Made by a program: the position numbers and the translations under genes
Notes under the pieces: generated by a model
The model's database searches: none
Told to the model about the DNA's origin: nothing
The model's input: only the letters and a program-made list of their open reading frames with translations
IMG/VR virus record: IMGVR_UViG_2882649382_000014
Source: an uncultured virus (IMG/VR IMGVR_UViG_2882649382_000014)
Lineage: Duplodnaviria; Heunggongvirae; Uroviricota; Caudoviricetes
Strand: one strand, 5' to 3'
DNA length: 20,000 bases
Part shown: in pieces, positions 1-17,912 of the stretch
Layout of the letters: each line of letters opens with the position of its first letter
Numbering within the stretch: position 1 is the first letter of the stretch

Positions 1-380
1 TGAAAGAATGGAATAGCCAGACAGGGTTACAAGGGATCATCAAAAAAGCTATGTATTTTGTGCTAATCGGCGTGGCGTTTTTGATTGGTTACGGAATAAA
101 GACCATAGGGACACAGATAAGCCTTGATCTGGATTTTTCTATCTATATTGGTTGGTATGTAACGGCAGTTATGTTAATCAATGAATTTACAAGCATATTA
201 GAAAATCTATATGTTATCATGCCGGAAAAAGTGCCTACATGGTTAGTAAAGGTGTTAAGGGTTACGGATAACAAATTAGATAATACGATCAATGGTATTG
301 TGTGCAAAAATCAGAATTGCGAAATTTGCAGTATCAAAGATCGGTGCAACCACTACAAAACAAAAGAAATGGAGGGCTAA
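1..380 (+). CDS. Phage holin (holin family 4 / toxin-secretion-lysis type), 5' truncated by window edge
   Basis: Frame stays open upstream of ATG 51 (KEWNSQTGLQGIIKKAM...). Two hydrophobic segments, an 'INEFTSILENL...VP.WL' motif typical of Firmicute phage holins, and position directly upstream of an endolysin. Confidence 0.85.
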   Translation, partial: KEWNSQTGLQGIIKKAMYFVLIGVAFLIGYGIKTIGTQISLDLDFSIYIGWYVTAVMLINEFTSILENLYVIMPEKVPTWLVKVLRVTDNKLDNTINGIVCKNQNCEICSIKDRCNHYKTKEMEG

Positions 381-383
381 AAC

Positions 384-1265
384 ATGAGCGTAAAAATCGG
401 ACACGCAAGCATTGACGAACGCGGGAAAGCAAGAGGAGGAGCAGCAGGAGATCAGACCGGCAGGGAGGTTTGCACAAGAAACTGGTATAATAAACCGTGG
501 ATAGCGGTTATTAGACCGAAAAGCAGCACAGCAGCCGAGAAAATCGCAAAAGCTATGGAGGCGGCTTGCGCAAATAACAATATCGGCTACGACCAGAACG
601 AAAGGACGACGCTTTACATAAAGGCAAAGGCTAATAACTGGAATATCGCAGGCATTAAAAGCAAGTGCGAAACAGATTGTAGCGCGTTGGTTGCAGTATG
701 CGTAAACGCAGCCGGAATAAGCGTAAGCAAAGACATATACACCGGGAACGAAAAAAGCGCACTGGTGGCGACCGGGAAATTTACAGCGCACACGGAAAGT
801 AAGTATTTGACGACTGATAATTATTTGAAACGCGGCGACATTTTATTAGCAAGCGGTCATACGGCGGTAGTGTTGAGCAACGGATCCAAAGCAACAGCGG
901 GAGGAAATGCAAATGCAGACGCAAGCGCGCCGGATAAATACAAAGAAATCATTAGATCATTGCAAACGGCATTAAACAGCGAGTATAAAGCAGGTTTGGT
1001 GGTTGACGGAGTACCGGGTAGCAAGACTTTTGGGGCAACGCCAACGCTTAATAAGAAAACAAGGGCGAAGAAACCAAAGACGGTTAAGGCATTGCAGAGC
1101 CTTTTAACCTATTATGGTTATAAATGTGATGTAGACGGAGATTTTTACACAGCCACAGAAAAAATGGTTAAGAGTTTCCAGAGGGAAGTTGTAGGACAGA
1201 AAAACCCGGACGGAGAAGTAACGGCTAAAAATGCCACATGGAAAAAGTTGTTAAAGTTATCATAA
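384..1265 (+). CDS. Phage endolysin: N-terminal Cys/His (NlpC/P60-CHAP superfamily) catalytic domain plus C-terminal peptidoglycan-binding repeats
   Basis: IGYDQ...ETDCSALV...GDILLASGHTAVV catalytic motifs; low-complexity linker; LQTALN...VDGVPG and LQSLL...VDGDFYTATEKMVKSFQ PG-binding-like repeats; RBS GGAGG; follows holin. Confidence 0.88.
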   Translation: MSVKIGHASIDERGKARGGAAGDQTGREVCTRNWYNKPWIAVIRPKSSTAAEKIAKAMEAACANNNIGYDQNERTTLYIKAKANNWNIAGIKSKCETDCSALVAVCVNAAGISVSKDIYTGNEKSALVATGKFTAHTESKYLTTDNYLKRGDILLASGHTAVVLSNGSKATAGGNANADASAPDKYKEIIRSLQTALNSEYKAGLVVDGVPGSKTFGATPTLNKKTRAKKPKTVKALQSLLTYYGYKCDVDGDFYTATEKMVKSFQREVVGQKNPDGEVTAKNATWKKLLKLS

Positions 1266-1284
1266 TCAGAGGAGGTAAAGGAAA

Positions 1285-1551
1285 ATGGCAGCAGCAAAGA
1301 ACGCTACAGCGGCGAAAGAGGCAGCAAAACCGGCAAAGGAGTATAAAGTTACCGGTAAAGGTTTTAAGAGCAAATCAGAGGCAAATACAGAACTTAAAAA
1401 GGTATTTGAAAAAGGTTTTAAGAGTGCCGGGCTTATGGTGCAGGGCAGCGAATTTGTTATATTATTCGGGACATATACCACAGCGCAGATCGCAAAAGCA
1501 AACGCGGCAGCAGTAGAAAAGGCAGGATTTACAGCGACAGTAACAGAGTAA
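1285..1551 (+). CDS. Small SPOR-domain-like protein
   Basis: RBS GGAGGT upstream; YKV.G.GFKSKSEAN...FVILFGTYTTAQIAKANAAAVEKAGFTATV resembles SPOR repeats. Confidence 0.65.
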   Translation: MAAAKNATAAKEAAKPAKEYKVTGKGFKSKSEANTELKKVFEKGFKSAGLMVQGSEFVILFGTYTTAQIAKANAAAVEKAGFTATVTE

Positions 1552-1586
1552 AGGAAATGAAATACAGAAACGAAATTGAAAGAGTA

Positions 1587-1615
1587 GCCGGGGCAGACGC
1601 CCCGGCACTTTTTTT
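1587..1615 (+). terminator. Intrinsic terminator of the lysis module
   Basis: GCCGGGGC-AGAC-GCCCCGGC stem followed by a 7-T run. Confidence 0.9.
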
Positions 1616-1633
1616 ATTGGGAAAATTTATAAA

Positions 1634-1679
1634 ATATTACAGAATATGTATTGACATATTACAGAATATGTTATAAAAT
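1634..1679 (+). promoter_or_regulatory. Sigma-A promoter with two operator-like repeats
   Basis: TTGACA (1651-1656), 17 bp, TAAAAT (1674-1679); 16-bp direct repeat ATATTACAGAATATGT at 1634-1649 and 1656-1671, each quasi-palindromic. Confidence 0.8.
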
Positions 1680-1723
1680 AATAATGTAATCAGTTAAGGG
1701 GCTACACCGTAAAGGAGTAGCAA

Positions 1724-1849
1724 ATGATAATAATAAAAGTGCTTTTGGAAATAGCCATTGTAACAGTGACAATCTTAGAAGTGATAAAGGAAATTAAAAA
1801 AGGGGCTGACACCGACCAAGACGACAACCCCAAAGACCGTAAAGAGTAA
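1724..1849 (+). CDS. 41-aa hydrophobic peptide, candidate type I toxin (not in ORF track)
   Basis: RBS AAAGGAG at 1711-1717; MIIIKVLLEIAIVTVTILEVIKEIKKGADTDQDDNPKDRKE: hydrophobic N-terminus, charged C-terminus. Confidence 0.7.
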   Translation: MIIIKVLLEIAIVTVTILEVIKEIKKGADTDQDDNPKDRKE

Positions 1850-1879
1850 CTTGTAAACCAAGCCCCTTAACTTGGTTAC

Positions 1880-1908
1880 ACTTTATCACAGAAAGATAAT
1901 AAAGTCAA
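1880..1908 (-). promoter_or_regulatory. Antisense sigma-A promoter (candidate antitoxin RNA promoter)
   Basis: Minus strand TTGACT (1908-1903), 17 bp, TAAAGT (1885-1880) with extended -10 TG; fires into the 3' end of the 41-aa ORF. Confidence 0.65.
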
Positions 1909-1925
1909 GACAGGAGGTTTTGGAA

Positions 1926-2117
1926 ATGAGGACGAGCAAAGACGGAAAGGAATTTAATCAGATTGCCTACCAGAATGACTATAAACGAGAAAAGTATGAT
2001 CGTATGGAATTGCTACTACCAAAGGGGAGAAAAGAAATATTGAAGAAAAAAGCAAAAGCAGCGGGGGTAAGTATGAGCGAATATATAAATAGCTTATTGG
2101 AAAAAGAATTAGGGTAA
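1926..2117 (+). CDS. Ribbon-helix-helix (Arc/CopG-like) DNA-binding protein
   Basis: RBS CAGGAGG at 1911 favours ATG 1926; YDRMELLLPKGRKEILKKKAKAAGVSMSEYINSLLEKEL is an RHH pattern. Confidence 0.8.
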   Translation: MRTSKDGKEFNQIAYQNDYKREKYDRMELLLPKGRKEILKKKAKAAGVSMSEYINSLLEKELG

Positions 2118-2140
2118 ATTTGCACATGATACAACGCCAT

Positions 2141-2187
2141 AGAAAACGCCGCAGGCTACCGAAATGGGATAGCCTACGGCGTTTTCT
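2141..2187. terminator. Long hairpin (terminator/attenuator-like) just upstream of the transposase RBS
   Basis: AGAAAACGCCGCAGGCTA (2141-2158) pairs with TAGCCTACGGCGTTTTCT (2170-2187), one mismatch. Confidence 0.6.
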
Positions 2188-2206
2188 TGTGAGAGGAGGG
2201 TACACA

Positions 2207-3238
2207 ATGAGAACATTCAAGCAATTAACATTTAACGACCGCTTGAAAATAGAGGTATTATTAAAGGCGGGGCATAAGAAAAAGGAAATAGCGGATATTC
2301 TAAGCGTTCATATAAGCACTATATATAGAGAAATTAAGCGGGGGAGGTTTGAGGCGTTAAATTCTGATTACACAACAGAGGAAAGATACAGCCCGGATAT
2401 TGCACAGAAAAAGAAAAACGAGGCGTTAGCTGCTAAAGGCGCAGATATTAAAATAGGTAAAGAAAGAGAATTTGCAGACCGCATAGAGGAAATTATAATA
2501 AATGACGGCTACAGCCCGGCAGCAGCATTGGCAAAAGTAAAGGAGGAGGGCTACACATTTTCGATATGCGTAACCACGTTATACAGCTATATTGATAAAG
2601 GAGTATTCCTTAATTTAACAAACAAGCAGCTACCAGTAAAAAGAAAAGGAGAAAAGAGAGCCTACAGAAGAACGACAGCAAAGAGGGCAAGCAAAGGCGA
2701 AAGCATAGAAAAAAGACCAGAGGAAATAAACGAGCGTGAGGAGTTCGGACATTGGGAAATGGATACCGTAGTAGGGAAAAGAGGCGTTTCAAAAAAATCT
2801 CTTTTGGTACTCACAGAACGAAAAACACGAAAAGAAATTATTATGCTACTTAAAGAACATACGGCAGCAGCAGTGGTTAAAGCATTGGATCGACTGGAAA
2901 GAAGATTAGGGGCGAAATTTCGGGAAATATTTAAGAGCATAACCGTAGATAACGGATCAGAGTTTGCAGACTATGAGGGAATGAAACGATCCCGCAGGGG
3001 AAAGAAAGACCGTACAAGGATATATTATTGCCATCCCTACAGCAGTTGGGAGCGTGGGAGCAACGAAAATCAAAATAAGTTAGTCCGGCGGCATATCCCC
3101 AAAGGGACAGATTTTGACGATAAGACGCAAAGAGAAGTTGAAAAAATAGAGGAGTGGATCAATAATTACCCACGCCGCATATTTGATTACAGAACATCAG
3201 AACAGTTATTCGAGGAGGAGTTAAGAAAAGCGGCATAA
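2207..3238 (+). CDS. IS30-family DDE transposase
   Basis: RBS GAGGAGG, ATG 2207; N-terminal HTH (KQLT..DR..I...HISTIYREIKRG); FGHWEMDTVVG, LTERKTR, SITVDNGSEF, YCHPYSSWERGSNENQNKLVRR, INNYPRRIF are IS30 signatures. Confidence 0.95.
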   Translation: MRTFKQLTFNDRLKIEVLLKAGHKKKEIADILSVHISTIYREIKRGRFEALNSDYTTEERYSPDIAQKKKNEALAAKGADIKIGKEREFADRIEEIIINDGYSPAAALAKVKEEGYTFSICVTTLYSYIDKGVFLNLTNKQLPVKRKGEKRAYRRTTAKRASKGESIEKRPEEINEREEFGHWEMDTVVGKRGVSKKSLLVLTERKTRKEIIMLLKEHTAAAVVKALDRLERRLGAKFREIFKSITVDNGSEFADYEGMKRSRRGKKDRTRIYYCHPYSSWERGSNENQNKLVRRHIPKGTDFDDKTQREVEKIEEWINNYPRRIFDYRTSEQLFEEELRKAA

Positions 3239-3356
3239 GTACATTAACCGGCAGCAGAAAGGCAGCAGGCTTTATTTATTTTACTCATTTGTGCAAAATT
3301 AACAATAAAACAGCTCTATATATTGTGCAAAATGCTAAAAGTGCAAATTTGTAAAT

Positions 3357-3385
3357 TTTTTTCGCATTTAATGTTGACTTTTTCA
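3357..3385 (-). mobile_element. Probable IS30-type right terminal inverted repeat, putative prophage boundary
   Basis: Reverse complement TGAAAAAGTCAACATTAAATGCGAAAAAA starts with TG, resembles Firmicute IS30 IRs and contains an outward TTGACT (3374-3379); subterminal TTGTGCAAAAT repeats at 3289 and 3323. Confidence 0.6.
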
Positions 3386-3409
3386 GTGTAGCGCATGGAG
3401 GAGAATTTA

Positions 3410-3438
3410 TTGTAAAAATGACGGAAATGGATTATAAT
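3410..3438 (+). promoter_or_regulatory. Sigma-A promoter for 3494 onward
   Basis: TTGTAA (3410-3415), 17 bp, TATAAT (3433-3438). Confidence 0.6.
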
Positions 3439-3493
3439 AAATTCAGAAAGCAATTCTGATCCAAATGCAATGAGAGGATAGGGGACGGATATA

Positions 3494-3736
3494 ATGACAG
3501 TTATGAAAGAAAAATCCGTTGATATTATCAGCCGTATGCCTGAAGATAAAGTATATCATGCATTGCAGCCTCTTGAGGGGATTGAGGGACTAACTTGTAA
3601 AAATTCAGAAACGGATTCTATGGATATATCTGTAAATAAAAGCTCTGGAAGGAAGCTTGGCCCATTAGCCGGAGGGCTTATTTTCATGGCGGACGATTTT
3701 GACGAAACGCCGGATTGCTTTAAAGAGTACATGTGA
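3494..3736 (+). CDS. DUF2281-like small protein (antitoxin-like)
   Basis: C-terminal RKLGPLAGGLIFMADDFDETPDCFKEYM matches the R..G...G.....DDFD.P...F.EYM pattern. Confidence 0.65.
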   Translation: MTVMKEKSVDIISRMPEDKVYHALQPLEGIEGLTCKNSETDSMDISVNKSSGRKLGPLAGGLIFMADDFDETPDCFKEYM

Positions 3737-3764
3737 CGGGATTATTTAAAGGGAGCGAATCACC

Positions 3765-3979
3765 ATGTCAGTAACATTAGAGGAAAAGGTGATAAAAAAA
3801 GTAGCTGGTTTATCAGACGATAACCTTATGTTTCTTAGCGATGTGACAGATAAATTTATGGAATCACCGAAAGTGGAAAACACATCTAAGAGAATTGGCG
3901 TTGCAGAAGGTAAATTTGTGTACCGGATGATTTTGACATCTGCAATGATAAAACTGCGGAAATGTTTGGAACAGGATGA
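3765..3979 (+). pseudogene. Second DUF2281-like gene with a frameshift near 3920
   Basis: ...KRIGVAEGKFV continues in the -1 frame as VPDDFDICNDKTAEMFGTG* (stop 3977-3979), restoring the DDFD motif. Confidence 0.65.
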
Positions 3980-4044
3980 TGATGGAAGTCTGACTGATTT
4001 CCCTACTGCCAGACTGGAAAAATATTGCGAAAGGATAAAAGGAC

Positions 4045-4983
4045 ATGCAGAAAAAGACGCCTGATTACGATAATGTGTTTAAGACCATGAAGAGTAAACA
4101 CAAGAGATTATTCATATCCGTAATCAATGACATTTTTGATAAAGAATATCCGTTGGATGCAAAAGTAGAGGTTTTGCCGTCAGAAGGGTACCTGACTGAG
4201 AGTGAAACGGCAGACGGAAGCAAAGAAATAGAGGAGCAGATTTCAGATTTTCTGATTAAAATCGGAAGTGAAGTTTACTTATTGGAATGCCAGAGTTATG
4301 ATGATGGCTCCATGGCGATCCGGATTGCGGAATATGCTTTCATTGTTGCCAGGCAGTTCGCAACGTGGGATATCGGGCATGCGACCATTCCCATGCCGAG
4401 GTTTTCCGTAATCTATGTTAAGCGGACGGAAAGAACACCGAAAAACACAACTATTACTTTCAAATTTCCAGATGGACAGGAAGTAAATTATGACTCAGAA
4501 AACGTAATCATTGAGGAATTTACAAAGGAATATATTGTGGAAAAAAGGCTGTTCCCTTACATTCCGTTTTATATTGCAAGATACGAGAAGGAAATTGCAT
4601 CTGAAGGAAATATAGAAAATGCGGTAAGCGACCTGGAATATTTCAGGGATGAAATGATCCGCTTATATCAGACGGGGGAACTGTCTGATGAAGAACTGTT
4701 AGACTTAATGGGATTTGTAAACACCATTATTACGCATATCGCAAATGGAAATAAAAATGAAGAAAGGCTGGTGAATGTTATGGGAGGAACCGTAATTGAG
4801 ACTGAATCAGAGAGACTGCGCCGTGAAGGAATAAGTCAGGGTGAGGCCAAGATGCTTATAAAGATGGGAAAAAAAGATGGTCTTGACGATGAAACAATTT
4901 TGAAAAGGATGCAGGAATGGATAGGTTTGTCCTTAGAACAGGCAGCCGTTTATTTAGAGCAGTACGGAAAGCAGCCCATATAG
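4045..4983 (+). CDS. Rpn/YhgA-like PD-(D/E)XK nuclease family protein
   Basis: YDNVFKT N-terminus, ISDFLIKI...YLLECQS...MAIRIAEY nuclease motif, C-terminal ETESERLRREGISQG tail typical of the Rpn family. Confidence 0.8.
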   Translation: MQKKTPDYDNVFKTMKSKHKRLFISVINDIFDKEYPLDAKVEVLPSEGYLTESETADGSKEIEEQISDFLIKIGSEVYLLECQSYDDGSMAIRIAEYAFIVARQFATWDIGHATIPMPRFSVIYVKRTERTPKNTTITFKFPDGQEVNYDSENVIIEEFTKEYIVEKRLFPYIPFYIARYEKEIASEGNIENAVSDLEYFRDEMIRLYQTGELSDEELLDLMGFVNTIITHIANGNKNEERLVNVMGGTVIETESERLRREGISQGEAKMLIKMGKKDGLDDETILKRMQEWIGLSLEQAAVYLEQYGKQPI

Positions 4984-5042
4984 ATTTATGAAGATGGGCA
5001 ATAATGCCATATAAAAATAAGATAAACAACGAAATGGCCGTG

Positions 5043-5083
5043 AGGGTATTCTATCTCTATTTTGGATGGAATGCCCTTATTTT
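5043..5083 (+). terminator. Hairpin with T-rich tail (copy 1 of a repeated intergenic motif)
   Basis: AGGGTATTCTATC / GATGGAATGCCCT stem followed by TATTTT. Confidence 0.5.
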
Positions 5084-5172
5084 ACGTTCAAAATGGAGAA
5101 GGAGAACAAAAAGATTGGAGAAATATCATGCTTTTTGATAGCAGCTCAAAATGAAAGGAGGTCAGACAGTCT

Positions 5173-5409
5173 ATGAAAAACGGAAAAGAAGGATGGTGGA
5201 AAAGATTTTGCAGATTTCGGAAATCCAAAAAGAAGGGAAAAGAACCATCAAATCGGATGGATGAAATTTCAAGCCTAACTGATTCAGACGAAAAATCTGA
5301 ATATATATTCACAGATTCGGATGGTAATGTAATCGTGCCAAATGGTAGGAAGACGATGGAGATTATGCATCCAGGTTATAAAGAACACTTAAAAGAGGAA
5401 GGTTTTTGA
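5173..5409 (+). CDS. Hypothetical protein
   Basis: Strong RBS AAAGGAGGT; 78 aa; no family recognised. Confidence 0.6.
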   Translation: MKNGKEGWWKRFCRFRKSKKKGKEPSNRMDEISSLTDSDEKSEYIFTDSDGNVIVPNGRKTMEIMHPGYKEHLKEEGF

Positions 5410-5430
5410 TTATTATTGAAAACATATCTG

Positions 5431-5468
5431 GGGCATTCCATGAAGCTATATGGGATGCCCTGATTTTA
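5431..5468 (+). terminator. Hairpin with T-rich tail (copy 2)
   Basis: GGGCATTCCAT / ATGGGATGCCC followed by TGATTTTA. Confidence 0.5.
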
Positions 5469-5496
5469 TGCAGAAATCAAAAGGAAGGAGATTTAT

Positions 5497-5736
5497 ATGT
5501 GTGATTCTAAGGTGCTGTATTTGAAATTTGTAGGAATGGATTCGTGGGACAGGCCTGCGTATAAGGATGATGGTGGAACGCTATGGAAAGATGTAGATCC
5601 GAGAGCAGGAATAAAACCGAATTTATGTACTTCGGTAAATAATGAATTTGACGGTGAGCCGGACACAGACATGAAGTATTTGGAGAAATACCGGGGTGTG
5701 GCGGTTGCCTTTGAGCCGGAACGAATTGTGTGGTAA
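5497..5736 (+). CDS. Hypothetical protein (mobile-element type)
   Basis: RBS GAAGGAG; GMDSWDRPAYKD...LWKDVDP...FDGEPD looks like a conserved small protein of clostridial mobile elements. Confidence 0.7.
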   Translation: MCDSKVLYLKFVGMDSWDRPAYKDDGGTLWKDVDPRAGIKPNLCTSVNNEFDGEPDTDMKYLEKYRGVAVAFEPERIVW

Positions 5737-5755
5737 TAGGAAGGAGGATGCGGAC

Positions 5756-6394
5756 ATGGCAAGGAAAAGACCGATGACAACGGAAGAACTTTTCAACAGG
5801 ATAAATGGTATTTTGAAGGAGAAGGGCAGGCTGCCGGATATTCTGGATTACGGACTGGCAACGCACAGTCCTGTACCAATCACAAACTATGAGTATGGAT
5901 TGAAAAATAAGCTTGATTACGGAGGAAATGAAGGGCGCACAACGTCCGGTGGACGTTGGCTTTGCGCGGACCGAAGCGGAGCGGAGACCTATCTGGATAT
6001 GTGGATTGAATATACTGCAGACGGGAAAAGATGCGTAAGTGGTCTTGGTACTTTCAAGACTTTGCGGACGGATGACAAGGCTATGCATATTATGGCAGCC
6101 CTGTTAGCGGATTTCATCATAGAGGAGTATGCTTATGTCAACGCGAATTTAGATGACTTCACATGGGGCGCACGGCATCCGGGGGATGTCGGTTCTGCGC
6201 CGACCGGAGTGGAACGGAGAGGCGTAGATGTCCATGTGATTGAGGAATCAGGGGAGAAAAGCAAATGGGGATATTCCTGCGGGACAATGAAAGCGGCTCT
6301 GAAAAGAAAGGACGAACTGCTGATGAAATACAACAAAGTCATTGTCAGGGATAATGCGACAAGGAAAGAAAGAATCTATGAGAACGGGGGATGA
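5756..6394 (+). CDS. Hypothetical protein carrying two in-frame palindromic-repeat insertions
   Basis: RBS AAGGAGG favours ATG 5756; repeat-derived peptides RTTSGGRWLCADRSGAE and GARHPGDVGSAPTGVER. Confidence 0.75.
   Translation: MARKRPMTTEELFNRINGILKEKGRLPDILDYGLATHSPVPITNYEYGLKNKLDYGGNEGRTTSGGRWLCADRSGAETYLDMWIEYTADGKRCVSGLGTFKTLRTDDKAMHIMAALLADFIIEEYAYVNANLDDFTWGARHPGDVGSAPTGVERRGVDVHVIEESGEKSKWGYSCGTMKAALKRKDELLMKYNKVIVRDNATRKERIYENGG
5933..5988 (+). repeat. ~55-bp palindromic repeat, copy 1 (intragenic)
   Basis: GCGCA-CAACGTCC-GGT-GGACGTTG-GCTT-TGCGC-GGACCGAAGCGGAGCGGAGAC. Confidence 0.85.
6166..6220 (+). repeat. ~55-bp palindromic repeat, copy 2 (intragenic)
   Basis: GGCGCA-CGGCATCC-GGG-GGATGTCG-GTTC-TGCGCC-GACCGGAGTGGAACGGAGA. 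Confidence 0.85.
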
Positions 6395-6883
6395 ATATGT
6401 CTGTAAAAACGCATAAAAATACTACAAAAATAGACTGCAGGTGGGCAATCGGGCTACTCTTTGCGGAAGGGATTGCCTATGTTACTAAAATAGAGAACTA
6501 CCCCAAAAAATGTTTTTATTGGGAATCAGGAAAAGAGCTTCTCTATTTTGAAAGCAAGAGAGCTGCGGATGATTATGCTTTTGGCATGGAATATGTAACG
6601 GACGTGATACCGACGCCCGATTTTGTGGAAGTGCATGGAAGGGCTGGCGGTGATGATCTCTGTTTCCGTGTTTATCTATGAATTCTTCCAATATGCGGAA
6701 AATATTGAGAAGGAACATATAAATGCGTGCCTTATGTATGAGAATGTTATTGAGACACTCTACCAGCTCTACATAAAGTATGAGTACCTCAGATACAGCA
6801 GATGGGAGGATATCGAAGAAATGCACAGTGCACTGTTAGAAGAACAGAAGAAGTATGCGGAAACTGCAGAGTGCAGGAAATAA
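6391..6883 (+). pseudogene. Overlapping, probably fragmented hypothetical ORFs (6391-6681 and ~6650-6883)
   Basis: Two overlapping ORFs in different frames, the second lacking a clear RBS; looks like a deletion mosaic of mobile-element genes. Confidence 0.4.
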
Positions 6884-6897
6884 GCGGGGGTAATGGG

Positions 6898-7125
6898 ATG
6901 GGATGTTTAAAAGAAATCATTGATAACGAATTTTCAGCCGTTGTAATCGGTGTGATGAACTTTAAGCTTGACAGCATAAGCACATTGGCAGCAGAGCACA
7001 TGGATGCAAAGACGTATAAAGAGATTGACGGCGAAATGTCAAACCGCCTTGTGGAAATGTCAAAGGAGTTTTTCACGCAGGGCTTCCTTCGTGGTGTGGC
7101 TGCGGCGAAGGGCGGCGCTGTGTAG
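6898..7125 (+). CDS. Hypothetical small helical protein
   Basis: GGGGG RBS-like run before ATG 6898; ends in FFTQGFLRGVAAAK, a motif common in small clostridial mobile-element proteins. Confidence 0.55.
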   Translation: MGCLKEIIDNEFSAVVIGVMNFKLDSISTLAAEHMDAKTYKEIDGEMSNRLVEMSKEFFTQGFLRGVAAAKGGAV

Positions 7126-7204
7126 GGGCATAGCCGCATGGACTTATGGATATAAGATATGACCATGCCAAACCCCTTGATTTTCCGCAGTTATTCAAAT
7201 CACA

Positions 7205-7224
7205 TCAAAACTATTAAGTTTTGA
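7205..7224. promoter_or_regulatory. Palindrome, probable res site of the adjacent resolvase
   Basis: TCAAAACT-ATTA-AGTTTTGA about 100 bp upstream of a serine recombinase. Confidence 0.55.
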
Positions 7225-7229
7225 CCATG

Positions 7230-7274
7230 ATATCTCCGAAAGATGGCGGATTGCTTCTTTCGGAGATATTTTTT
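7230..7274 (+). terminator. Intrinsic terminator-like hairpin upstream of the resolvase
   Basis: ATATCTCCGAAAGA / TCTTTCGGAGATAT 14-bp stem followed by TTTTT. Confidence 0.7.
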
Positions 7275-7322
7275 CAGTGGAGAAAGAACAGCGGTAACGG
7301 AACATAGGAAAGAAGGTGGAAC

Positions 7323-7886
7323 ATGAAATACGGATATGCGAGAGTGAGCACCAAAGGACAGGCGAAAGACGGCAACAGCTTGGAGTATCAGGAACACGCC
7401 TTGAAAGATGCAGGGGCGGAAATCATATATATGGATGCATTTACCGGAACCAAATCACACAGGCCGGAACTGGATAAGCTGCTGAACGATATTCAGGACG
7501 GAGACATGCTGATCGTTACAAAATTAGACCGTATCGCCAGGAGCACCATGCAGGGGATTGAACTGATCGAGGCTCTGGTGGATAAAGGTGTGATTATCCA
7601 TGTACTGAATATCGGCATGATGGATCATTCACCGACAGGAAAGCTGATCCGGAATATCTTCCTCGCTTTTGCTGAGTTTGAGAGGGATATGATCGTGGAA
7701 CGTACGCAGGAGGGTAAGAGTATAGCGAAGCAGAATCCTGATTTTCGGGAGGGAAGGCCGAAAAAATATTCCAAAGCGCAGATAAGCCATGCTTTGGAAT
7801 TGTTGGATACATATTCTTATAAGAAGGATAAAGCGCGTGAATACAAGCGCTGTACTGCTGTTTATTGTCTTTGGCCATCCCGATGA
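7323..7886 (+). CDS. Serine recombinase (resolvase/invertase family), C-terminal HTH truncated by IS remnant
   Basis: [38 protein letters not shown]; sequence diverges into transposase antisense after ...LLDTYSYK (~7822), removing the recognition helix. Confidence 0.88.
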
Positions 7887-8474
7887 CGTCAAGGCCTCCT
7901 CTGGGGACAGCATGGATGAAAGGTTCGCTGGTGAACCACGTATCCATCAGTACACAGGATGCTTCAATGCCCGCTTCAAGCGCACTGTGGATCAGGGCAG
8001 CTGCAGCCTCCGGCTTCTTCATTATGGCATCTTCCCGCGCTTTTGCGCCATTGGTCCGCCTGTCAATAGATTCGTTTGCATGGTTTAGCAACAGCACAAA
8101 CCGTCTCCAGCTGTAATGGCAGTTGGACAGGAAATGGTAATATGTACTTTTCGCACACGCGGTGTCCTGCTTTTTGAACCAGGAAACCGGAACAGGTTTG
8201 TACCTTGGAACACCAGCATGAGGAGGAACTGGAAGATTTCAAACGCGGTACGCTTCTTCCCGCCATCCCCATTCCTGGAACGGCTGGCTTTACATATGTT
8301 GGACTGTTTTGTAGTATCATAAAGTTAGCATCTCCTCTCGTTTTTTTGAGTTTATGGGTTAACTTTATGATACCAGAGGCAGATGCTTTTTTCTATATCA
8401 ACAGGGCATTTTTTGTCTTAAATATATTAAGATTTATAAGGATTTCAGGTTGAAATCCTTATGGGAAAGTTGAG
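7823..8474 (-). mobile_element. Degenerate IS remnant (IS4/IS701-like DDE transposase pseudogene, frameshifted and internally deleted)
   Basis: Minus strand end CTCAACTTTCCC at 8474; RBS GAGGAG plus ATG 8320; fragments FEIFQFLLMLVFQG.NLFRFL, YSWRRFVLLL and IDRRTNGAKAREDA...VLMDTWF...LDVIGMAK in shifting frames. Confidence 0.75.
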
Positions 8475-8643
8475 TTATTAAGACTAAATAATTGCAGACT
8501 AAAAAGGTCGGAAATAAAGCATTTAAGGGGATTTACTCCAGAGTCAATATCAAAGTACCTAAATCAATACTTAAATCATATAAAAGGATATTAAGAGCAA
8601 AGGGTGCTATATGCAAGAAAATAAAATCTTACTCAGGTCTTTC

Positions 8644-8672
8644 TTGAATGAGCGTATAAGATATGTTAAAAT
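8644..8672 (+). promoter_or_regulatory. Sigma-A promoter upstream of structured leader and PfkB gene
   Basis: TTGAAT (8644-8649), 17 bp, TAAAAT (8667-8672) with extended -10 TG. Confidence 0.7.
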
Positions 8673-8679
8673 TTTCATA

Positions 8680-8796
8680 CGAAAAAGCCCTTCGACGGGG
8701 CGGCCGCCTCCCAAGCTGTCACTGTAAACTTAGCTGGTGTAATCTATGATTAGCCGGACTTACACCAGATGGGAGATGGCGCTGATGACAGATTAA
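8680..8796 (+). other. GC-rich structured leader RNA sequestering an SD-like sequence and an ATG of a 3-codon ORF
   Basis: GCCC/GGGC hairpin; CTCCCA (8708-8713)/TGGGAG (8770-8775); CTGTCA (8716-8721)/TGACAG (8786-8791); CTGGTGTAA (8734-8742)/TTACACCAG (8760-8768); ATG ACA GAT TAA at 8785-8796. Confidence 0.6.
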
Positions 8797-8852
8797 AGAA
8801 ATATATAATAACAATTTGTATTTAAAAACAGCTTTTGAAATAAAGCAGAAAG

Positions 8853-9785
8853 ATGAGGCAGAAAATGAGAGTAATAGTATCGGGATTAATTAATATTGAA
8901 ACAACACTAAAAGTTAGAAAGTTTCCAATTGATTATTATCCAATTGATTACCCTTTTTTTGGTATAAAATCAGGTGTTTCAGGTGTGGCTTATAATGTTG
9001 GAAAAGCTCTTTTGACATTGGGAAATGATATACAAATAACATCTTTTATTGGTGAAGATGAAGAAGGAGAGCGAATTTTATTAAATTTACAAGATGAAAG
9101 AATAGGAAATCAGTTTATTTATCGTGAATTAAAAGAAACGCCCGTTACAATAGCATTGTATGATGAGGAAGGAAAAAGACAAATATATTGTGATTTGAAG
9201 GACATTCAGGAAAAAAATATGGATTTTGATAGATTAGAAGCAACAATAAGAAATAGTGATTTGGTTGTTTTATGCAATACTAATTTCAACCGCTCATTAT
9301 TAAAAAAAGTAAGGGAGGCTGGGAGATTGATTGCTAGTGATGTTCATGTGTTAAGTGACATTGATGATGAATATAATAAGGAATTTATGGAATATGCAGA
9401 TATTTTATTTTTGAGTGATGAGCAATTGCCGAGTAGTGCAGAACGATTTCTTTTTGAAATGAAAGAAAAATATTTATCGAAAATTATAGTAATCGGACTT
9501 GGCCAGAAGGGAGCACTGTTATATGAACGTTCTAAAGATAAAATATACAGATTGGAGGCTGCTCATGTAGGTGATGTTGTGAATACTCTTGGTGCAGGAG
9601 ATGCATTATTTTCATGTTTTATTAATTATTACATGAAAGGATACTCAGCAGTAGAAGCCTTAACTCGTGCAGAGATATTTGCAGCGTTAAAAATTCGTTA
9701 TAATGGTGCAGCAAATGGATTTAGCAGCGAAGATATTGTGGAAAGGTATTATAGAAATGGTGGTGTAGCTGTACTAGTACAATAA
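8853..9785 (+). CDS. PfkB/ribokinase-family carbohydrate kinase
   Basis: SGVAYNVGKAL..LG N-terminal signature and VNTLGAGDALFSCF C-terminal signature; visibly AT-richer than flanking genes. Confidence 0.92.
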   Translation: MRQKMRVIVSGLINIETTLKVRKFPIDYYPIDYPFFGIKSGVSGVAYNVGKALLTLGNDIQITSFIGEDEEGERILLNLQDERIGNQFIYRELKETPVTIALYDEEGKRQIYCDLKDIQEKNMDFDRLEATIRNSDLVVLCNTNFNRSLLKKVREAGRLIASDVHVLSDIDDEYNKEFMEYADILFLSDEQLPSSAERFLFEMKEKYLSKIIVIGLGQKGALLYERSKDKIYRLEAAHVGDVVNTLGAGDALFSCFINYYMKGYSAVEALTRAEIFAALKIRYNGAANGFSSEDIVERYYRNGGVAVLVQ

Positions 9786-9857
9786 GGAAGGATAAGTTTC
9801 GGAGTTGTGTTCTATAATATAGCATCATGTATGGAAAATATGAATATAGCAGAAGAT

Positions 9858-10524
9858 ATTTATTCTGCGTAAAATTCATTCGGCATTTAACCGCCTTAGC
9901 AATATTTCCATGTAAATCTATATATCTTTATGCCAAATTGGTGTAGTAATGGTATAGTAACTTTAAAAAAGTTTGATGCAAATTCCCTATAGAAACAAAA
10001 TATTTTGGACACATGCATAGGTTCATGACAGGTAAAAGGATAAGGATTATCCTTAACTTGTTGTGGGCTTATTTTATTACTAAGGCGGTTAAATGTCGAT
10101 GTTTTTACTTGCCTAAATTTTTATCTGCTGCGTTGGTCTACGCTCCGCTACGGTCCGTGCTTAACAGATGTCCACCGGACATCTAGCACCATCAATCGCT
10201 GTAGCACTCGCTACAGCTCAATCTTTCGCCTTGCAGATAGAAATTTATTCTGCGTAAAATCCATTCGATATTTAACCGCCTTAGTAATATTAGGTGCTGC
10301 TGATTGGCTGGTTTTTATATAAAAGCAGTTTTTTGTGAATTGCTTTTATGCTTTTGTGAAAGAATTAATTGTAAGAAGCGGTTAAAAAATAATGCTGCCT
10401 TTTATGCAGTTATTTTTTTAACAATTCCTGAAGATGCAGTATAATGTTACTAAAGTGGTTAAATAGCAGTGTTTTTACCTGAGTATTCTGCGTAAATTTA
10501 CTGATATTTGACCGGCTTAGAATA
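9858..10524. repeat. Cluster of ~50-bp arms (core CTAAGGCGGTTAAAT) in alternating orientation, MITE/REPIN-like
   Basis: Arms at 9858-9906 (+), 10075-10128 (-), 10233-10291 (+), 10447-10483 (-), 10484-10524 (+); 9858-9906 and 10243-10291 match at 45 of 49 positions. Confidence 0.8.
10135..10190 (-). repeat. ~55-bp palindromic repeat, copy 3 (intergenic, nested in larger IR element)
   Basis: Reverse complement GGTGCT-AGATGTCC-GGT-GGACATCT-GTTA-AGCAC-GGACCGTAGCGGAGCGTAGACC. Confidence 0.85.
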
Positions 10525-10562
10525 GTTTTGTGGTAAATTCAGCAATCTGAGAGGAGAAAGTT

Positions 10563-11426
10563 ATGAAACGGATTATTAAAGAGAAAATGTTAGGGAATTT
10601 TGAAAGTTACCTGAAAAAAGCGGAAAAGAGCAAGGCTACCATCAGCAAGTATCTGTGTGATTTGCGGAAGCTGATAGAATATGCAGGCGGAAGGGAGATT
10701 AGCAAGGAACTGATGATTAATTATAAAGATAAGCTTTTAAACAAAGATGAGTACAAGGTTAGAAGTGTTAATTCTTTTTTGGCGGCTGCAAACTGTTTTC
10801 TGGAATATATGGGCTGGCATGATTTGAAGGTTAAGGCTTATAAGATACAGCAGGAAACGTTCTGCCCGGAAAATAAATGCCTTTCAAAAGAAGAATATTA
10901 CCGGCTTGTAGAGGCGGCAAAGAAAATGGGTAAGATACGGCTTGCAATGATTTTACAGACAATCTGCGCTACAGGCATCCGTGTCAGCGAGCTGGCGGCC
11001 GTTACTGTTTCTTCTGTGCGGAGTAATTCGGTGGTTATCCATAATAAAGGGAAAATAAGGGCAATCCTTTTGCCGGATGAACTAAGAAAGGAACTGCTTT
11101 ACTATATAGGGAGGAACGGAATACAAAAAGGGGCAGTGTTTTGTACCGCTTCAGGGAAGGCAGTGGACCGAAGCAATATCTGGAGGGAGATGAAAGCCCT
11201 CTGCAAAGTGGCAGATATTAATGAAGAGAAGGTATTTCCGCATAACCTGCGCCATTTGTTTGCCACTGTGTTTTATGCAATTAAAAAAGATATTGCAAAA
11301 TTGGCGGATATTCTCGGGCATAGCAGTATTGAAACAACAAGGATTTATATTAAAATGACCGGCAGGGAACACAAAAAGCAGCTTAACCGGATGAAACTTG
11401 TGCCGGTATGCTGTGCTACAGCGTAA
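10563..11426 (+). CDS. Tyrosine recombinase (XerC/D-like), probable DNA invertase
   Basis: RBS GAGGAG; full catalytic set TGIRVSE (R), NKGK (K), HNLRH, LGH, TTRIY (Y); N-terminal core-binding domain. Confidence 0.93.
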   Translation: MKRIIKEKMLGNFESYLKKAEKSKATISKYLCDLRKLIEYAGGREISKELMINYKDKLLNKDEYKVRSVNSFLAAANCFLEYMGWHDLKVKAYKIQQETFCPENKCLSKEEYYRLVEAAKKMGKIRLAMILQTICATGIRVSELAAVTVSSVRSNSVVIHNKGKIRAILLPDELRKELLYYIGRNGIQKGAVFCTASGKAVDRSNIWREMKALCKVADINEEKVFPHNLRHLFATVFYAIKKDIAKLADILGHSSIETTRIYIKMTGREHKKQLNRMKLVPVCCATA

Positions 11427-11527
11427 ATCTGACATGGCGGTGCAAAGATAAAGTATAGTATTTATGTTCGCGTGCACAACGGGCCAAACGCAGGCTTGCT
11501 TGCAGCGGAGGCTATAATTGTGGAAAG

Positions 11528-11560
11528 AAAAAAACTGTACGCTGCCTGCATACAGTTTTT
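11528..11560 (-). terminator. Bidirectional terminator, best on minus strand
   Basis: Minus strand ACTGTATGC-AGGCA-GCGTACAGT then TTTTTTCTTT; on plus strand the stem has a C-A mismatch and a 5-T tail. Confidence 0.8.
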
Positions 11561-11753
11561 ACAACATAATGATTATTATGTTATCCAAATACATATGCTA
11601 TTGTAACATGAAAGTCTTTGCATTTCAAGTTTTTTTCTGTTATTTCTATTATTTCCTCTTTTTACAGTTGGTGTTCATGAAATAACTAAATTCCGGGAAT
11701 TTTGGCATGGAATTTTGTTTAAATGCCAACATCATAATAATCATTATGTTGTA
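11560..11753. promoter_or_regulatory. Invertible segment bounded by perfect 21-bp inverted repeats, containing a minus-strand sigma-A promoter
   Basis: TACAACATAATGATTATTATG (11560-11580) and its exact reverse complement (11733-11753); minus strand TTGAAA (11628-11623), 17 bp, TACAAT (11605-11600) with extended -10 TG. Confidence 0.88.
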
Positions 11754-11783
11754 GGGCAATATTTTGAAGCAGGGAGGGGAATT

Positions 11784-12512: not shown

Positions 12513-12515
12513 GAT

Positions 12516-14365: not shown

Positions 14366-14420
14366 GTATTGGGCTGGCATCCTGTTGCTGGGACAGTTTC
14401 TAAGGGAATGGGGGATATTT

Positions 14421-14834: not shown

Positions 14835-14837
14835 TAG

Positions 14838-17828: not shown

Positions 17829-17912
17829 AAAAAGGTATATATAGAAGGGAAAAGACCGCAGCTATGATTGCCTGATAAAGGGAAAGGTTCTGTAGGAAAA
17901 GGGGTGGTATAT

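Follow-up and report, generated by a model that had tools for sequence, protein, structure and literature searches.

The first 3385 nt of the window, the 20,000-nt stretch of DNA analyzed here, form the right arm of a myovirus-like, gut-bacterial prophage of 39,648 bp whose right end lies at A3385. The window spans three assembly contigs (1-4667 corresponds to C207:36831-41497, 4603-5159 to C165 and 5096-20000 to C182), and because positions 1-4667 belong to C207 the far end of the prophage could be read on that contig, which sets its bounds, both terminal inverted repeats (IRs) included, at G000:C207:568-40215. The lysis module, small regulators and intact transposase follow each other on the plus strand in the order originally described. 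The lysis block comprises the C-terminal part of a phage holin gene (3..380; PF05105, Phage_holin_4_1, E 3e-15; the entire gene, C207:36662-37210, scores E 5e-24), an endolysin with an endolysin-like domain (PF25309, E 5.5e-72) and a peptidoglycan-binding domain (PF01471, PG_binding_1, E 1.4e-9) at 384..1265, and, as its final gene, an 88-aa ORF from the ORF list (1285..1551) that matches neither Pfam nor PHROG. A terminator-like G+C-rich hairpin of 8 pairs, all G-C, followed by the T run ACTTTTTTTA (1587..1606) appears to close the lysis operon.

Downstream of this hairpin, a plus-strand promoter-like site (TTGACA-17-TAAAAT, 11/12 consensus) and its flanking repeats occupy 1636..1679. The sequence ATTACAGAATATG occurs there twice (1636 and 1658), once on each side of the −35 element, and the paired repeat is also present in relatives L041 and L077; we consider this region the putative operator-promoter of the regulator and transposase module. 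It is followed by a hydrophobic 41-aa ORF from the ORF list (1724..1849), for which tblastn finds relatives 5′ of the transposase at 3 out of 80 viral loci, and, directly 5′ of the transposase, by a gene for a ribbon-helix-helix (RHH), Arc-like small regulator (1926..2117; phrog_13890, E 8e-14; phrog_582 ‘Arc-like repressor’, E 9e-6). The Pfam NikA-like and FitA-like RHH matches of this protein are below their cut-offs, and an RHH protein precedes the transposase in 16 of the 80 viral loci. An inverted repeat with a 17-bp stem between the regulator and the transposase start (2141..2187), seen as a reverse-orientation self-match (C207:38971-39017) and not picked up by the terminator scan, is a possible attenuator. 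Two elements probably restrain transposase expression: the Arc-like protein, through the repeated operator (1636-1679), and the stem-loop (2141-2187). The transposase itself (2207..3238, plus strand) is an intact IS30-family DDE enzyme of 343 aa with HTH_38 and rve domains (Pfam) that reads outward to the prophage end and matches phrog_4646 ‘transposase’ (residues 1-341 of 344, E 9e-133). We take the motif-located residues D186, D248 and E287 to be its candidate catalytic triad. Three plus-strand subterminal copies of GTGCAAA (3291, 3325 and 3341; 3291..3347) lie between its stop codon and the terminal repeat; similar TGTGCA(A/T)A repeats were noticed by eye in relatives with long spacers.

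An IS30-like IR had been noted about 120-150 bp beyond the transposase gene, and the right repeat (IRR, 3356..3385, plus strand) is real: its end, ...TTGACTTTTTCA at A3385, lies 147 bp past the stop codon and is set by the boundary of the duplication described below, and it contains an outward-facing −35-like TTGACT at 3374-3379. The same IR, TCGCATTTAAT-R-TTGAC-W-TTTTC-A with variants, lies 3′ of the transposase in viral and genome-collection relatives, where it was called in 159 of 172 sources, 7 of these calls being later discarded as miscalls. We scanned the whole genome for IRs with a fuzzy pattern of 21-23 nt, allowing up to 4 mismatches, and a second scan looked for the 8-nt core of the IR. 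In agreement with the original prediction, no IRL-like sequence was found 5′ of the transposase, either in the window or within 2 kb upstream. On C207, the scans returned only the two terminal sites, a hairpin arm at C207:614 and a core match at C207:21246 in the capsid region. The left IR (IRL; G000:C207:568-597, GCAAAGTTTTAGAATTAAATGCGAAAAGAG) lies 39.6 kb upstream of IRR on the same contig, so that the partner repeat is indeed at the far end of the phage but is not close to the string that had been proposed, as it agrees with the reverse complement of IRR at only 20 of 30 positions, around a perfect 14-nt core, ATTAAATGCGAAAA. Judging from these scans, there is a single IR pair and there are no inner IRs. 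Inward of IRL lie two terminator-like hairpins, then a 62-aa ORF, an HTH-only paralogue of the N-terminal part of the transposase; RNAalifold recovered no more than the outer stem (7 pairs) of hairpin 1, with 2 covarying pairs.

The expected short target duplication was found as well. The 39,648 bp from one IR to the other are bracketed by an identical 15-bp direct repeat, GTGTAGCGCATGGAG, whose right copy (3386..3400) abuts IRR and whose left copy (G000:C207:553-567) abuts IRL. The same duplication length was obtained wherever both ends could be read (C168, G193, G143, G049b, G291, G230 and the L007/L115 pair from one sample); it is exactly 15 in G193, G049b and G291, and reads as 15-17 in the others because neighboring bases happen to coincide. 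Nine duplications read at both ends all differ in sequence. Inside these boundaries, the prophage carries a full set of tailed-phage genes (Rep, ParA/ParB, TerS/TerL, portal, protease, capsid, sheath, tube, tape measure, baseplate, fiber, DGR, holin and endolysin). As anticipated, no tyrosine or serine integrase is encoded: PF00589, PF00239 and PF07508 are absent from the 55 prophage ORFs and from the window ORFs, and the transposase and its HTH paralogue are the only members of the PHROGs ‘integration and excision’ category among them. The reading of the transposase as the integrase is therefore supported at the sequence level, by the IR pair and 15-bp repeat that bracket the element and by the lack of another recombinase.

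Transposase relatives were retrieved from viral contigs (200) and genome contigs (237). A stand-alone multicopy IS with its left end near 2120-2200 was not observed, since the genome holds one copy of the transposase at 100% and its sole paralogue (61% aa) lies at the end of another such prophage, on C168. Mobility is indicated by transposases 96-100% identical to that of the window at five different flanks (the window, L140, L141, L142 and L143). We consider it highly probable that the element is a temperate, contractile-tailed phage of the IScream/Lagaffe type whose sole recombinase is the IS30-family DDE transposase, and which forms a circle from its IR pair, integrates in register with promoters and generates a 15-bp duplication. 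The IRs, the duplication, the lack of another recombinase, the junction anatomy of the relatives and the target register can each be read directly from the DNA.

Circular contigs of relatives reveal how the ends meet. Among 22 relative loci, we obtained 19 distinct circular junctions, all of which consist of IRR, 2 nt and IRL with a 17-nt −35/−10 spacing; 17 of the 19 pass thresholds of ≤1 mismatch for the −35 and ≤2 for the −10, and one of the misses, that of L066, stems from a script artefact. Between otherwise near-identical junctions, the 2 nt vary. The relatives' junction promoter is TTGACA-17-TAnAAT; a promoter scan calls TTGACA-17-TAGAAT (11/12) at the junction of the L010 circular contig, and it gives no call at the integrated left end. 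The suggestion that TTGACT in the IR could contribute to a junction promoter fits exactly: with the ends of the window prophage abutted (TTGACT, TTTTCA, the 2-nt spacer, GCAAAGTTT), TAGAAT of IRL falls 17 nt past TTGACT, the circle and spacer being read from relatives with 55-82% identical transposases and not from the window prophage.

We also analyzed the localization of insertions relative to host promoters. Outside the prophage, a plus-strand promoter-like site that reads away from it (3410..3438; TTGTAA-17-TATAAT, 10/12 consensus) starts 9 nt past the duplication. In relatives the modal distance is 11 nt: with family F excluded, 50 of the 105 distinct right flanks of integrated elements carry TTGACA (≤1 mismatch) in this exact column, compared to 0-6 matches in non-modal columns and 6 and 3 in the adjacent ones. 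With TTGTAA at 9 nt, the window insertion thus belongs to the remaining 55 of the 105 flanks, in which the modal column holds no near-consensus TTGACA. Across the 105 flanks, the modal −35 columns hold T in 88, T in 90, G in 71, A in 58 and C in 60, and the alignment exhibits an A-tract upstream and TG-n-TATAAT downstream. A −10 element (≤1 mismatch) follows in 37 of the 50 modal-column flanks versus 8.8% of the AT-rich TTGACA-like sites of G000 (n = 11,806). The host −35 is always on the transposase (IRR) side, and the peak is absent from 17 distinct left flanks. In a subfamily with IRR TTCGCATTTACTCTTGACATTTAC, the promoter pattern was found in 0 of 12. In the stacked pair L118, exactly 15 nt separate the IRR of one phage from the IRL of another.

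Based on IS30 and on the relatives' circular contigs, we propose a four-step mechanism. The transposase would synapse IRL and IRR and produce a circle in which the IRs abut across 2 flank-derived bases. The −35 of IRR (TTGACT/TTGACA) would then lie 17 nt from the −10 of IRL (TAGAAT), creating a promoter that reads into the left arm and would exist in the circular or virion genome only; since two terminator-like hairpins separate this promoter from the first gene, read-through may not be productive. Next, cleavage at the two IR tips would open the junction, and its ends would be joined to the target strands at positions 15 bp apart, thereby generating the 15-bp duplication and dismantling the junction promoter. 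Finally, the target would be non-random, the duplication ending about 11 nt (here 9 nt) 5′ of a host sigma-A-type −35, with placement directed by the enzyme alone or via something bound at the promoter; because IRR always faces the promoter, the host gene would keep its core promoter. What we infer here beyond the anatomy is catalysis by the transposase, copy-out as opposed to excision, the activity of the promoters and what the HTH-only and Arc-like proteins do.

This class of phage is already in print, as FP_Lagaffe (Cornuault et al., Microbiome 2018, PMC5883640) and as the ‘IScream’ phages (Wirbel, Hickey et al., Nature 2025, PMC12823448), which the original prediction had named correctly. 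According to the main text of the latter paper, IScream phages are gut Clostridia prophages without tyrosine or serine integrase and with full phage structural and lysis genes; one of their ends carries a full-length outward IS30 transposase and the opposite one a truncated gene derived from IS30. They are modeled there as composite transposons. The terms ‘inverted repeat’, ‘target site’, ‘direct repeat’, ‘att’ and ‘promoter’ are absent from the main text. Our sequence reading departs from this account in four respects, some of which the supplements or figures of the paper may hold: one IR pair only, a junction with a 2-nt spacer and a promoter, a duplication of 15 bp, and a target in register with promoters. 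Passages of the FP_Lagaffe paper describe a myovirus of Faecalibacterium whose annotated integrase is an IS30-family transposase and which has a reverse transcriptase/DGR, flanking direct repeats that its authors called ‘surprising’, and hosts of different families; IRs, a junction promoter or a target rule are not described in these passages. FP_Lagaffe is a different phage (48.2 kb versus 39.6 kb), with a transposase 52% identical over 99% of the query. Relative to the Lagaffe passages and the IScream main text, the present analysis adds the single IR pair, the 17-nt junction promoter, the 15-bp duplication, the promoter register and the parallel with an IS. The closest named phage record, compared by its transposase match alone, is Clostridium phage Saumur (ON453901.1; 60% identity, 100% of query), in which the gene occupies the extreme end of the sequence (47-1084, minus strand).

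The composite-transposon model, in which two IS30 copies flank the phage as cargo and the left one has decayed, finds an echo in the left-end 62-aa ORF, which is homologous to the transposase N-terminus (24/45 identical, E 1e-14), and in the truncated inward IS30 genes of 183-4,175 nt noted in the IScream main text. We nevertheless regard it as unlikely, given that inner IRs were not found, neither an IRL-like site in the 2 kb 5′ of the transposase nor a complete IRR after the small ORF. This ORF is present in 16/16 diverse left ends kept for alignment, a count biased by their having been chosen for an HTH-like motif, and it matches a phage family of its own, phrog_11420, so that it looks retained rather than decaying; in addition, a compact IS relative with the same ends has its IRL only about 110 nt before the transposase start. 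The model is more about origin than about present mechanism and is compatible with our best explanation. Compact IS relatives, such as a four-copy element in G033 with a transposase 51% identical, also lend some credit to an ordinary IS30-family IS having landed by chance at the end of a prophage that integrates otherwise. This is very improbable and is contradicted by the matching IRL and 15-bp duplication around the full 39.6 kb; the gene is single-copy at 100% with no left IR nearby, other recombinases are absent, and relatives share this organization, among them circular contigs where IRR is joined to IRL and the left arm.

The IS30 transposase is reportedly able to perform site-specific recombination (Kiss et al. 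2003, as cited in PMC5883640), and direct repeats were noted flanking Lagaffe in the same paper, which raises the question of whether the 15-17-nt repeat is an att core instead of a target duplication. We find this hardly credible: the repeat differs at all nine insertions read at both ends, and the relatives' junctions contradict it, with only 2 variable nt between IRs in 19/19. Selection after random insertion, by which only harmless insertions survive, would account for promoter proximity without targeting, as prophages within genes would be counter-selected, promoters sit in intergenic AT-rich DNA, and the sites hit are genuine promoters whose good −10 elements the transposase need not read. 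Loss of insertions in genes must contribute to the enrichment. As a full explanation it is improbable, since it leaves unexplained the single-base register (50/105 in one column versus 6 and 3 beside it), the constant orientation, the re-use of the same 15 nt by a second phage in L118 and the same geometry in the compact IS.

Integration by the transposase, our preferred reading, invites comparison with other known systems. In the passages of PMC9333248 considered here, IS30 of E. coli has an HTH and DDE transposase and imperfect terminal IRs, moves by copy-out-paste-in through a circular intermediate whose abutted IRs form a strong promoter (Pjunc), and inserts non-randomly by hot spots and IR targeting. 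IS30 is 1.2 kb long and uses near-palindromic hot spots or its own IRs as target, whereas the window prophage has IRs 39.6 kb apart, an asymmetric sigma-A promoter target and a first gene behind the junction promoter that is not the transposase; its duplication, like that of its relatives, is 15 bp compared to 2 bp for IS30, and the analogy in chemistry is therefore not guaranteed in detail. The compact IS of the same subfamily, with four contig-end copies in G033, shares the IR types of the prophage (GGTAAGTTGTAAGATT... and ...CTTGCAATTTTCA), shows duplications of 15-16 bp and is found 11 nt from a −35-like hexamer that precedes tRNA genes; it differs by its size (~1.3 kb) and by lacking phage genes, hairpins and the HTH-only ORF. 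Phage Mu and Mu-like phages are likewise tailed phages integrated by a DDE transposase, yet a Mu-type transposase and MuB were not found in the window prophage, which differs from Mu by its rolling-circle Rep and ParA/ParB and by site-biased insertion with a 15-bp duplication instead of 5 bp. Consistent with the passages of PMC5883640, Lagaffe packages from a cos site and not, as Mu does, with host DNA.

The window follows a path across three contigs of its own genome (G000), with positions 1-4667 corresponding to C207:36831-41497, 4603-5159 to C165 and 5096-20000 to C182:1-14905. C207 is 41,497 bp long and so gives access to about 37 kb of sequence upstream of the window. When C207 was scanned with the prophage's right end in reverse complement, a single site was returned, near position 580. 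This left terminal inverted repeat (IRL; GCAAAGTTTTAGAATTAAATGCGAAAAGAG, C207:568-597) lies at the far left end of the prophage and shares 20 of its 30 positions, and a 14-nt core without mismatches, with the reverse complement of the right one (IRR; window 3356-3385, ...TTGACTTTTTCA at A3385, 147 bp past the transposase stop codon). The two therefore form imperfect terminal inverted repeats, and the same 15 nt, GTGTAGCGCATGGAG, stand directly outside both (C207:553-567 and window 3386-3400). They bound an element of 39,648 bp (C207:568-40215) whose G+C content, 0.414, is that of the genome. The original prediction had placed a terminal repeat ending exactly at A3385, its partner at the far end of the phage rather than upstream of the transposase, and called for a short target duplication; all of this is borne out, and no left-type repeat was found upstream of the transposase gene. 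The element is also unlike a composite transposon, as neither an inner IRL nor a complete inner IRR was found; the sole extra copy of the core is the 3′ arm of a hairpin at C207:614.

The right arm (window 1-3385) has its lysis genes, small regulators and intact IS30-family transposase all on the plus strand, as had been noticed. It begins with the 3′ part of a holin gene, followed by an endolysin gene, an 88-aa ORF and a terminator-like hairpin (window 1587-1606). A promoter-like site on the plus strand, TTGACA-17-TAAAAT (window 1651-1679), carries one of two ATTACAGAATATG copies on each side and precedes a 41-aa ORF and a ribbon-helix-helix (Arc-like) gene (window 1926-2117), from which a long stem-loop (window 2141-2187) separates the transposase gene (window 2207-3238). 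The encoded protein of 343 aa matches phrog_4646 over its full length and combines an N-terminal HTH_38 domain (PF13936, E 2.8e-10) with a DDE catalytic rve domain (PF00665, E 1.1e-8), in which D186, D248 and E287 are, judging from the motif, presumably the catalytic residues. Three copies of GTGCAAA lie between the transposase stop codon and IRR (window 3291-3347). Similar TGTGCA(A/T)A repeats occur in relatives with long spacers and are absent in relatives with 15-20-nt spacers; these subterminal copies may be accessory binding sites.

Gene content was assessed with Pfam on 55 prophage ORFs and the window ORFs, and with PHROGs on 30 ORFs. According to Pfam, the prophage is a complete contractile-tailed phage. 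It encodes replication and maintenance functions (rolling-circle Rep, RNase H, MazF-type toxin, C5 methylase, split Dam methylase, ParA, ParB, exonuclease), a packaging and structural set (TerS, TerL, portal, ClpP-type protease, major capsid, connectors, sheath, tube, chaperone) and further tail genes (tape measure, LysM protein, baseplate, fibre proteins), which together with a reverse transcriptase, holin and endolysin leave both the structural and the lysis sets full. No tyrosine or serine recombinase was detected inside the prophage by either profile collection, in agreement with the expectation that it would lack such an integrase, and the PHROGs labels for integration and excision or DNA binding fell solely on the transposase and a small left-end ORF. 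The latter (C207:719-907, 62 aa, HTH_38) begins 151 bp inside the left end and shares 53% identity with transposase residues 2-46, with a weaker alignment to residues 89-132; 147 bp separate the end of the transposase gene from the right end, so both IS30-family genes lie under 1 kb away from the prophage ends. The host island encodes, 3.9 kb beyond IRR, a small serine recombinase (window 7323-7886; Resolvase domain, E 2e-37) that does not belong to the phage.

The transposase gene could alternatively belong to a stand-alone, multicopy IS with its left end near window 2120-2200. It is present in its own genome as one copy at 100% identity, and its only paralogue (61% identical in amino acids) forms the end of a second prophage of the same build on C168. 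With a single copy, a sole paralogue ending another prophage and no other recombinase inside, neither a stand-alone IS nor a conventionally integrating prophage fits this locus. The inverted repeats and the 15-bp duplication likewise support the proposal that the transposase acts in the role of integrase.

Several genes of the prophage deserve mention on their own account. The Dam-type methylase is split over two overlapping ORFs (L004:5508-5714 and 5692-6003, on a stretch of this prophage) matching profile positions 7-63 and 63-145, which may reflect a frameshift or a programmed shift. Genes for the rolling-circle-type Rep, ParA and a ParB-like protein (L004:1792-2598, 6618-7502 and 7764-9122) hint at possible plasmid-like maintenance of the circular form. 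A diversity-generating retroelement is also present, its repeats located at L005:15055-15184 and 15859-15988 on a second stretch of the prophage (G000:C207:34055-34184 and 34859-34988). A DUF6273 fibre-like gene has the 130-nt variable repeat at its 3′ end, the template repeat lies upstream of the reverse transcriptase gene (L005:16198-17484), and all 15 of the 15 differences between variable and template repeats fall at template adenines.

Transposase relatives were collected from viral contigs (200) and genome contigs (237), with 80 loci kept from each; those kept from viral contigs are 55-82% identical to the transposase, and most viral contigs carry the gene no more than a few hundred bases from a contig end. 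Among 300 further genomes sampled from the family, the transposase is present in 26 (E <= 1e-60). Prophages that could be read at both ends carry direct repeats whose only common length is 15 bp. Besides GTGTAGCGCATGGAG at the prophage studied here, these are AGAAATCAATACTTT in G193, AATTCAGAAAAAAGC in G049 and GGAGTAAAATAGTTT in G291, all three bounded exactly, as well as GTTGCTGGGGGATTA in G143, AGAAAACGAAAATTA in G230 and TTTTTTGCAAAGTTG in the L007/L115 pair of loci; in G086 the repeat is 16-17 nt long with ambiguous borders. The repeats that are not exactly bounded read as 15-17 nt because adjoining bases coincide. The left ends of the G080 and G171 (contig 4) prophages were not found within the stretch fetched. 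A shared attachment-site core was considered as another origin of these repeats and rejected: their sequences are mutually unrelated and the circular forms hold 2 nt, not 15, between the ends, so the repeats represent target duplications. The second prophage of the same genome (G000:C168:1-48200) carries its own 15-bp duplication, AAATGACGAAAAATG, and its IRR is followed by the duplication and 11 nt, then by tandem rRNA-type promoters.

We analyzed the DNA flanking IRR in 172 sources, namely the 80 viral loci, the 80 genome loci, ten further stretches, the window and C168. IRR was called in 159 and not in 13, and 149 had at least 60 nt of flank, comprising 22 junctions and 127 integrated ends. 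Seven loci miscalled by the regular expression (L039, L041, L060, L077, L204, L074 and L075) were removed before counting, which left 117 distinct flanks; a subfamily of 12 flanks whose IRR is TTCGCATTTACTCTTGACATTTAC (subfamily F) was counted apart, and the tip of the inverted repeat was set by subfamily. Among the remaining 105 flanks, TTGACA with at most one mismatch occupies one and the same column in 50, located 11 nt past the 15-nt duplication, against 0-6 matches in every other column. Base by base, the columns give T 88, T 90, G 71, A 58 and C 60, and the flank consensus further shows an A-tract in columns 17-22, a G in column 48 and T-A-T-A-A-T in columns 50-55. A −10 hexamer with at most one mismatch follows at 16-18 nt in 37 of these 50 flanks, compared to 8.8% of 11,806 AT-rich TTGACA-like sites in the prophage's own genome. 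Many of the targets are recognisable as promoters of rRNA, tRNA or ribosomal-protein genes. No −35 peak was found in either orientation in 17 distinct left flanks; therefore the promoter always flanks the transposase end and points outward from the phage. At the prophage of the window, the site is TTGTAA-17-TATAAT (10/12), located 9 nt rather than 11 nt past the duplication.

The promoter pattern was found in 0 of the 12 flanks of subfamily F (for example L020, L056, L069, L169, L202, L215-L217 and L136), whose loci come mostly from MAGs labelled Oscillospiraceae or Scatosoma; one of these flanks is a terminator-like hairpin. On one viral contig (L118) the insertion is stacked: exactly 15 nt separate IRL from an IRR, belonging to another subfamily, in its left flank, which indicates that a second phage re-used the same 15 nt and that the target had been regenerated. 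Transposases 96-100% identical to that of the window adjoin five different flanks (the window, L140, L141, L142 and L143, the last being G080), which is evidence of recent mobility.

A compact IS has the same geometry. In genome G033, a transposase 51% identical to that of the window is present as four contig-end copies (L220 and L229-L231; G033:C51, C46, C60 and C74). The element is about 1.3 kb long, with IRL GGTAAGTTGTAAGATT... some 110 nt before the start codon and IRR ...CTTGCAATTTTCA. Its flanks, paired across contigs, show 15- and 16-nt duplications, and after each come 11 nt and a −35-like hexamer that lies upstream of a tRNA gene. Both the promoter register and the long stagger are therefore traits of this IS30 subfamily, inherited by the phages. 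Taken together, we consider it likely that the transposases of this IS30 subfamily, in phages and compact ISs, are promoter-register integrases that read a sigma-A promoter and insert in one orientation with a 15-bp stagger, the duplication ending 11 nt upstream of the −35 hexamer. The register could be read either from the −35 hexamer through one of the transposase's HTH domains or from RNA polymerase bound there.

The circular form was examined in the relatives. At 22 loci, 19 of them distinct, the sequence continues straight from IRR into IRL and the HTH ORF, the arrangement of a circular or permuted genome, and a spacer of 2 nt separates the repeats in 19 of 19 distinct junctions. This spacer varies between otherwise near-identical junctions (AT, AA, TA and GG, for example, within one group). 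The distance from TTGAC(A/T) in IRR to a TAnAAT-like hexamer in IRL is exactly 17 nt in all 19, and 17 pass a threshold of at most one mismatch at −35 and two at −10; the two others are a script artefact (L066) and a weak −10 (L072). A promoter scan called TTGACA-17-TAGAAT (11/12) across one such junction (L010); none was called in the integrated left end of the prophage studied here. By geometry, a circle of this phage would read TTGACT, then TTTTCA, 2 nt, GCAAAGTTT and TAGAAT, the same layout as in the relatives, which fits the earlier suggestion that the outward TTGACT of the repeat could form a junction promoter. We also compared Logan contigs from four runs of four studies to window 2700-3900. 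They covered the host flank (about 3390-3900) and a conserved transposase stretch of 30-100 nt, and the IRR-IRL joint is absent from these contigs, which leave window 2823-3355 uncovered; one contig shows a related IRR leading into a different flank. In G226 (L136/L137; C2:183513-234953), two identical transposase genes are separated by 49 kb and have an IRR-2 nt-IRL junction between them, close to a contig end; this junction in a chromosome contig corresponds to either a tandem prophage dimer or an assembled circular form.

The left ends share a further architecture. All 16 diverse left ends that were aligned have a hairpin behind IRL, in which the 5′ arm is the core of the repeat (AAATGCGA...) and the 3′ arm is its inverted repeat followed by a T run, and in most a second hairpin with its own T run precedes the HTH ORF. 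Of the first hairpin, RNAalifold on these 16 left ends retrieved just the outer stem of 7 pairs, with 2 covarying pairs, the inner stem being lost to alignment gaps. A terminator scan called the second hairpin in L010 and neither of the two in C207. Given this partial recovery and the result on C207, we refer to these hairpins as terminator-like only. They may shield a silent left arm against read-through from the host, or serve as a gate for the junction promoter.

This anatomy is compatible with the following mechanism, the chemistry and regulation of which are inferences from the sequence anatomy. The transposase would pair IRL and IRR to produce a circle with a 2-nt spacer, on which the junction promoter would be present and read into the left arm. 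For integration, the junction would be cut at both tips and joined to the target with a 15-bp stagger positioned by the host promoter, and this step would split the junction promoter. The Arc-like protein, its putative repeated operator and the stem-loop preceding the transposase gene probably keep the enzyme scarce, and the HTH-only paralogue may be a competitor for the same DNA or an aid in finding it.

The class to which this prophage belongs is already known, having been described in 2018 and named in 2025, and the prophage is ordinary for its class; its interest lies in the anatomy deduced from it and about 100 related insertions. The original prediction correctly pointed to the 'IScream' phages (Wirbel, Hickey et al., Nature 2025, PMC12823448), which according to the main text lack a canonical integrase; one of their ends bears a conserved IS30 transposase facing outward, and the opposite end a truncated IS30 gene of 183-4,175 nt. 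The same text reports 22 in the authors' data, 1,780 candidates in MGV and a circular, DNase-protected form in Blautia hansenii. Like them, our prophage has a full-length outward and a truncated inward IS30 gene within 1 kb of its ends, and full structural and lysis genes alongside the lack of a tyrosine or serine integrase. Lagaffe, as presented in the main text of its description (Cornuault et al., Microbiome 2018, PMC5883640), is a myovirus with an IS30-family transposase as integrase, an RT/DGR and a cos site; its virions were found in two host families, and direct repeats 'surprisingly' flank it. Among named phage records, Clostridium phage Saumur (60%) and FP_Lagaffe (52%) have related transposases. 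For IS30 itself, the available text of PMC9333248 describes abutted inverted repeats with a junction promoter and a 2-bp duplication. Our element resembles the IS30 family in its HTH and DDE (rve) transposase, its imperfect terminal repeats and a junction promoter with repeats spaced by about 2 bp, seen in relatives and, for this phage, by geometry alone. It is unlike that family, in which duplications measure 2-3 bp, in its duplication of 15 bp, shared with the other prophages read at both ends and 15-16 bp in the compact IS.

Mu-like phages combine a Mu-type transposase with a MuB-like partner, duplicate 5 bp and insert nearly at random. The prophage differs from them in its IS30-family transposase, its 15-bp duplication, its promoter-register target and the lack of a MuB-like ATPase among the Pfam matches. 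The junction, stagger and target rule were not found in the main texts of PMC12823448 and PMC5883640, figures and supplements aside, or, among the papers listed, in a literature search on target specificity and promoter-targeted insertion in the IS30 family.

If true, promoter targeting would parallel, in bacteria, the targeting of Ty3 or Tf1. Insertion in this register would leave the core promoter of the host intact and regenerate the target so that prophages can stack, and it would couple lysogeny to breakage of the junction promoter, possibly a lysogeny switch that dismantles an early promoter. The rule would also explain the reported, unusually broad host range, because every Bacillota genome has the same target, and thus offers a possible mechanistic account of such phages across bacterial families. 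With a 15-bp stagger, a position 11 nt upstream of the −35 hexamer and a fixed orientation, these enzymes would make natural 'safe-harbour' integrases for Bacillota.

A search for the empty site using the 182 nt to the left of the duplication (C207:386-567) found no uninterrupted site in 301 genomes of the family, with four short matches (30-79 nt, 75-90% identity) outside the prophage's own genome. C40, in the same assembly, holds a phage-free version of the island and was rejected as the empty site for being too diverged. To the left of the prophage, G000:C207:134-385 is a 5′ fragment of a uvrB-like gene, named by eye from its translation, that ends abruptly (...VSYY), and fragments 79-97% similar to it occur on C209, C40, C197 and C93. 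The truncated gene and its similar fragments place the prophage within a further inserted island. This island may be a hot spot for integration at which the 5′ end of the uvrB-like gene is duplicated. In the window outside the prophage, a repeat of about 215 nt (window 10068-10292) is found at more than 30 sites of the genome with 96-99% identity, some copies lacking the middle ~55 nt.
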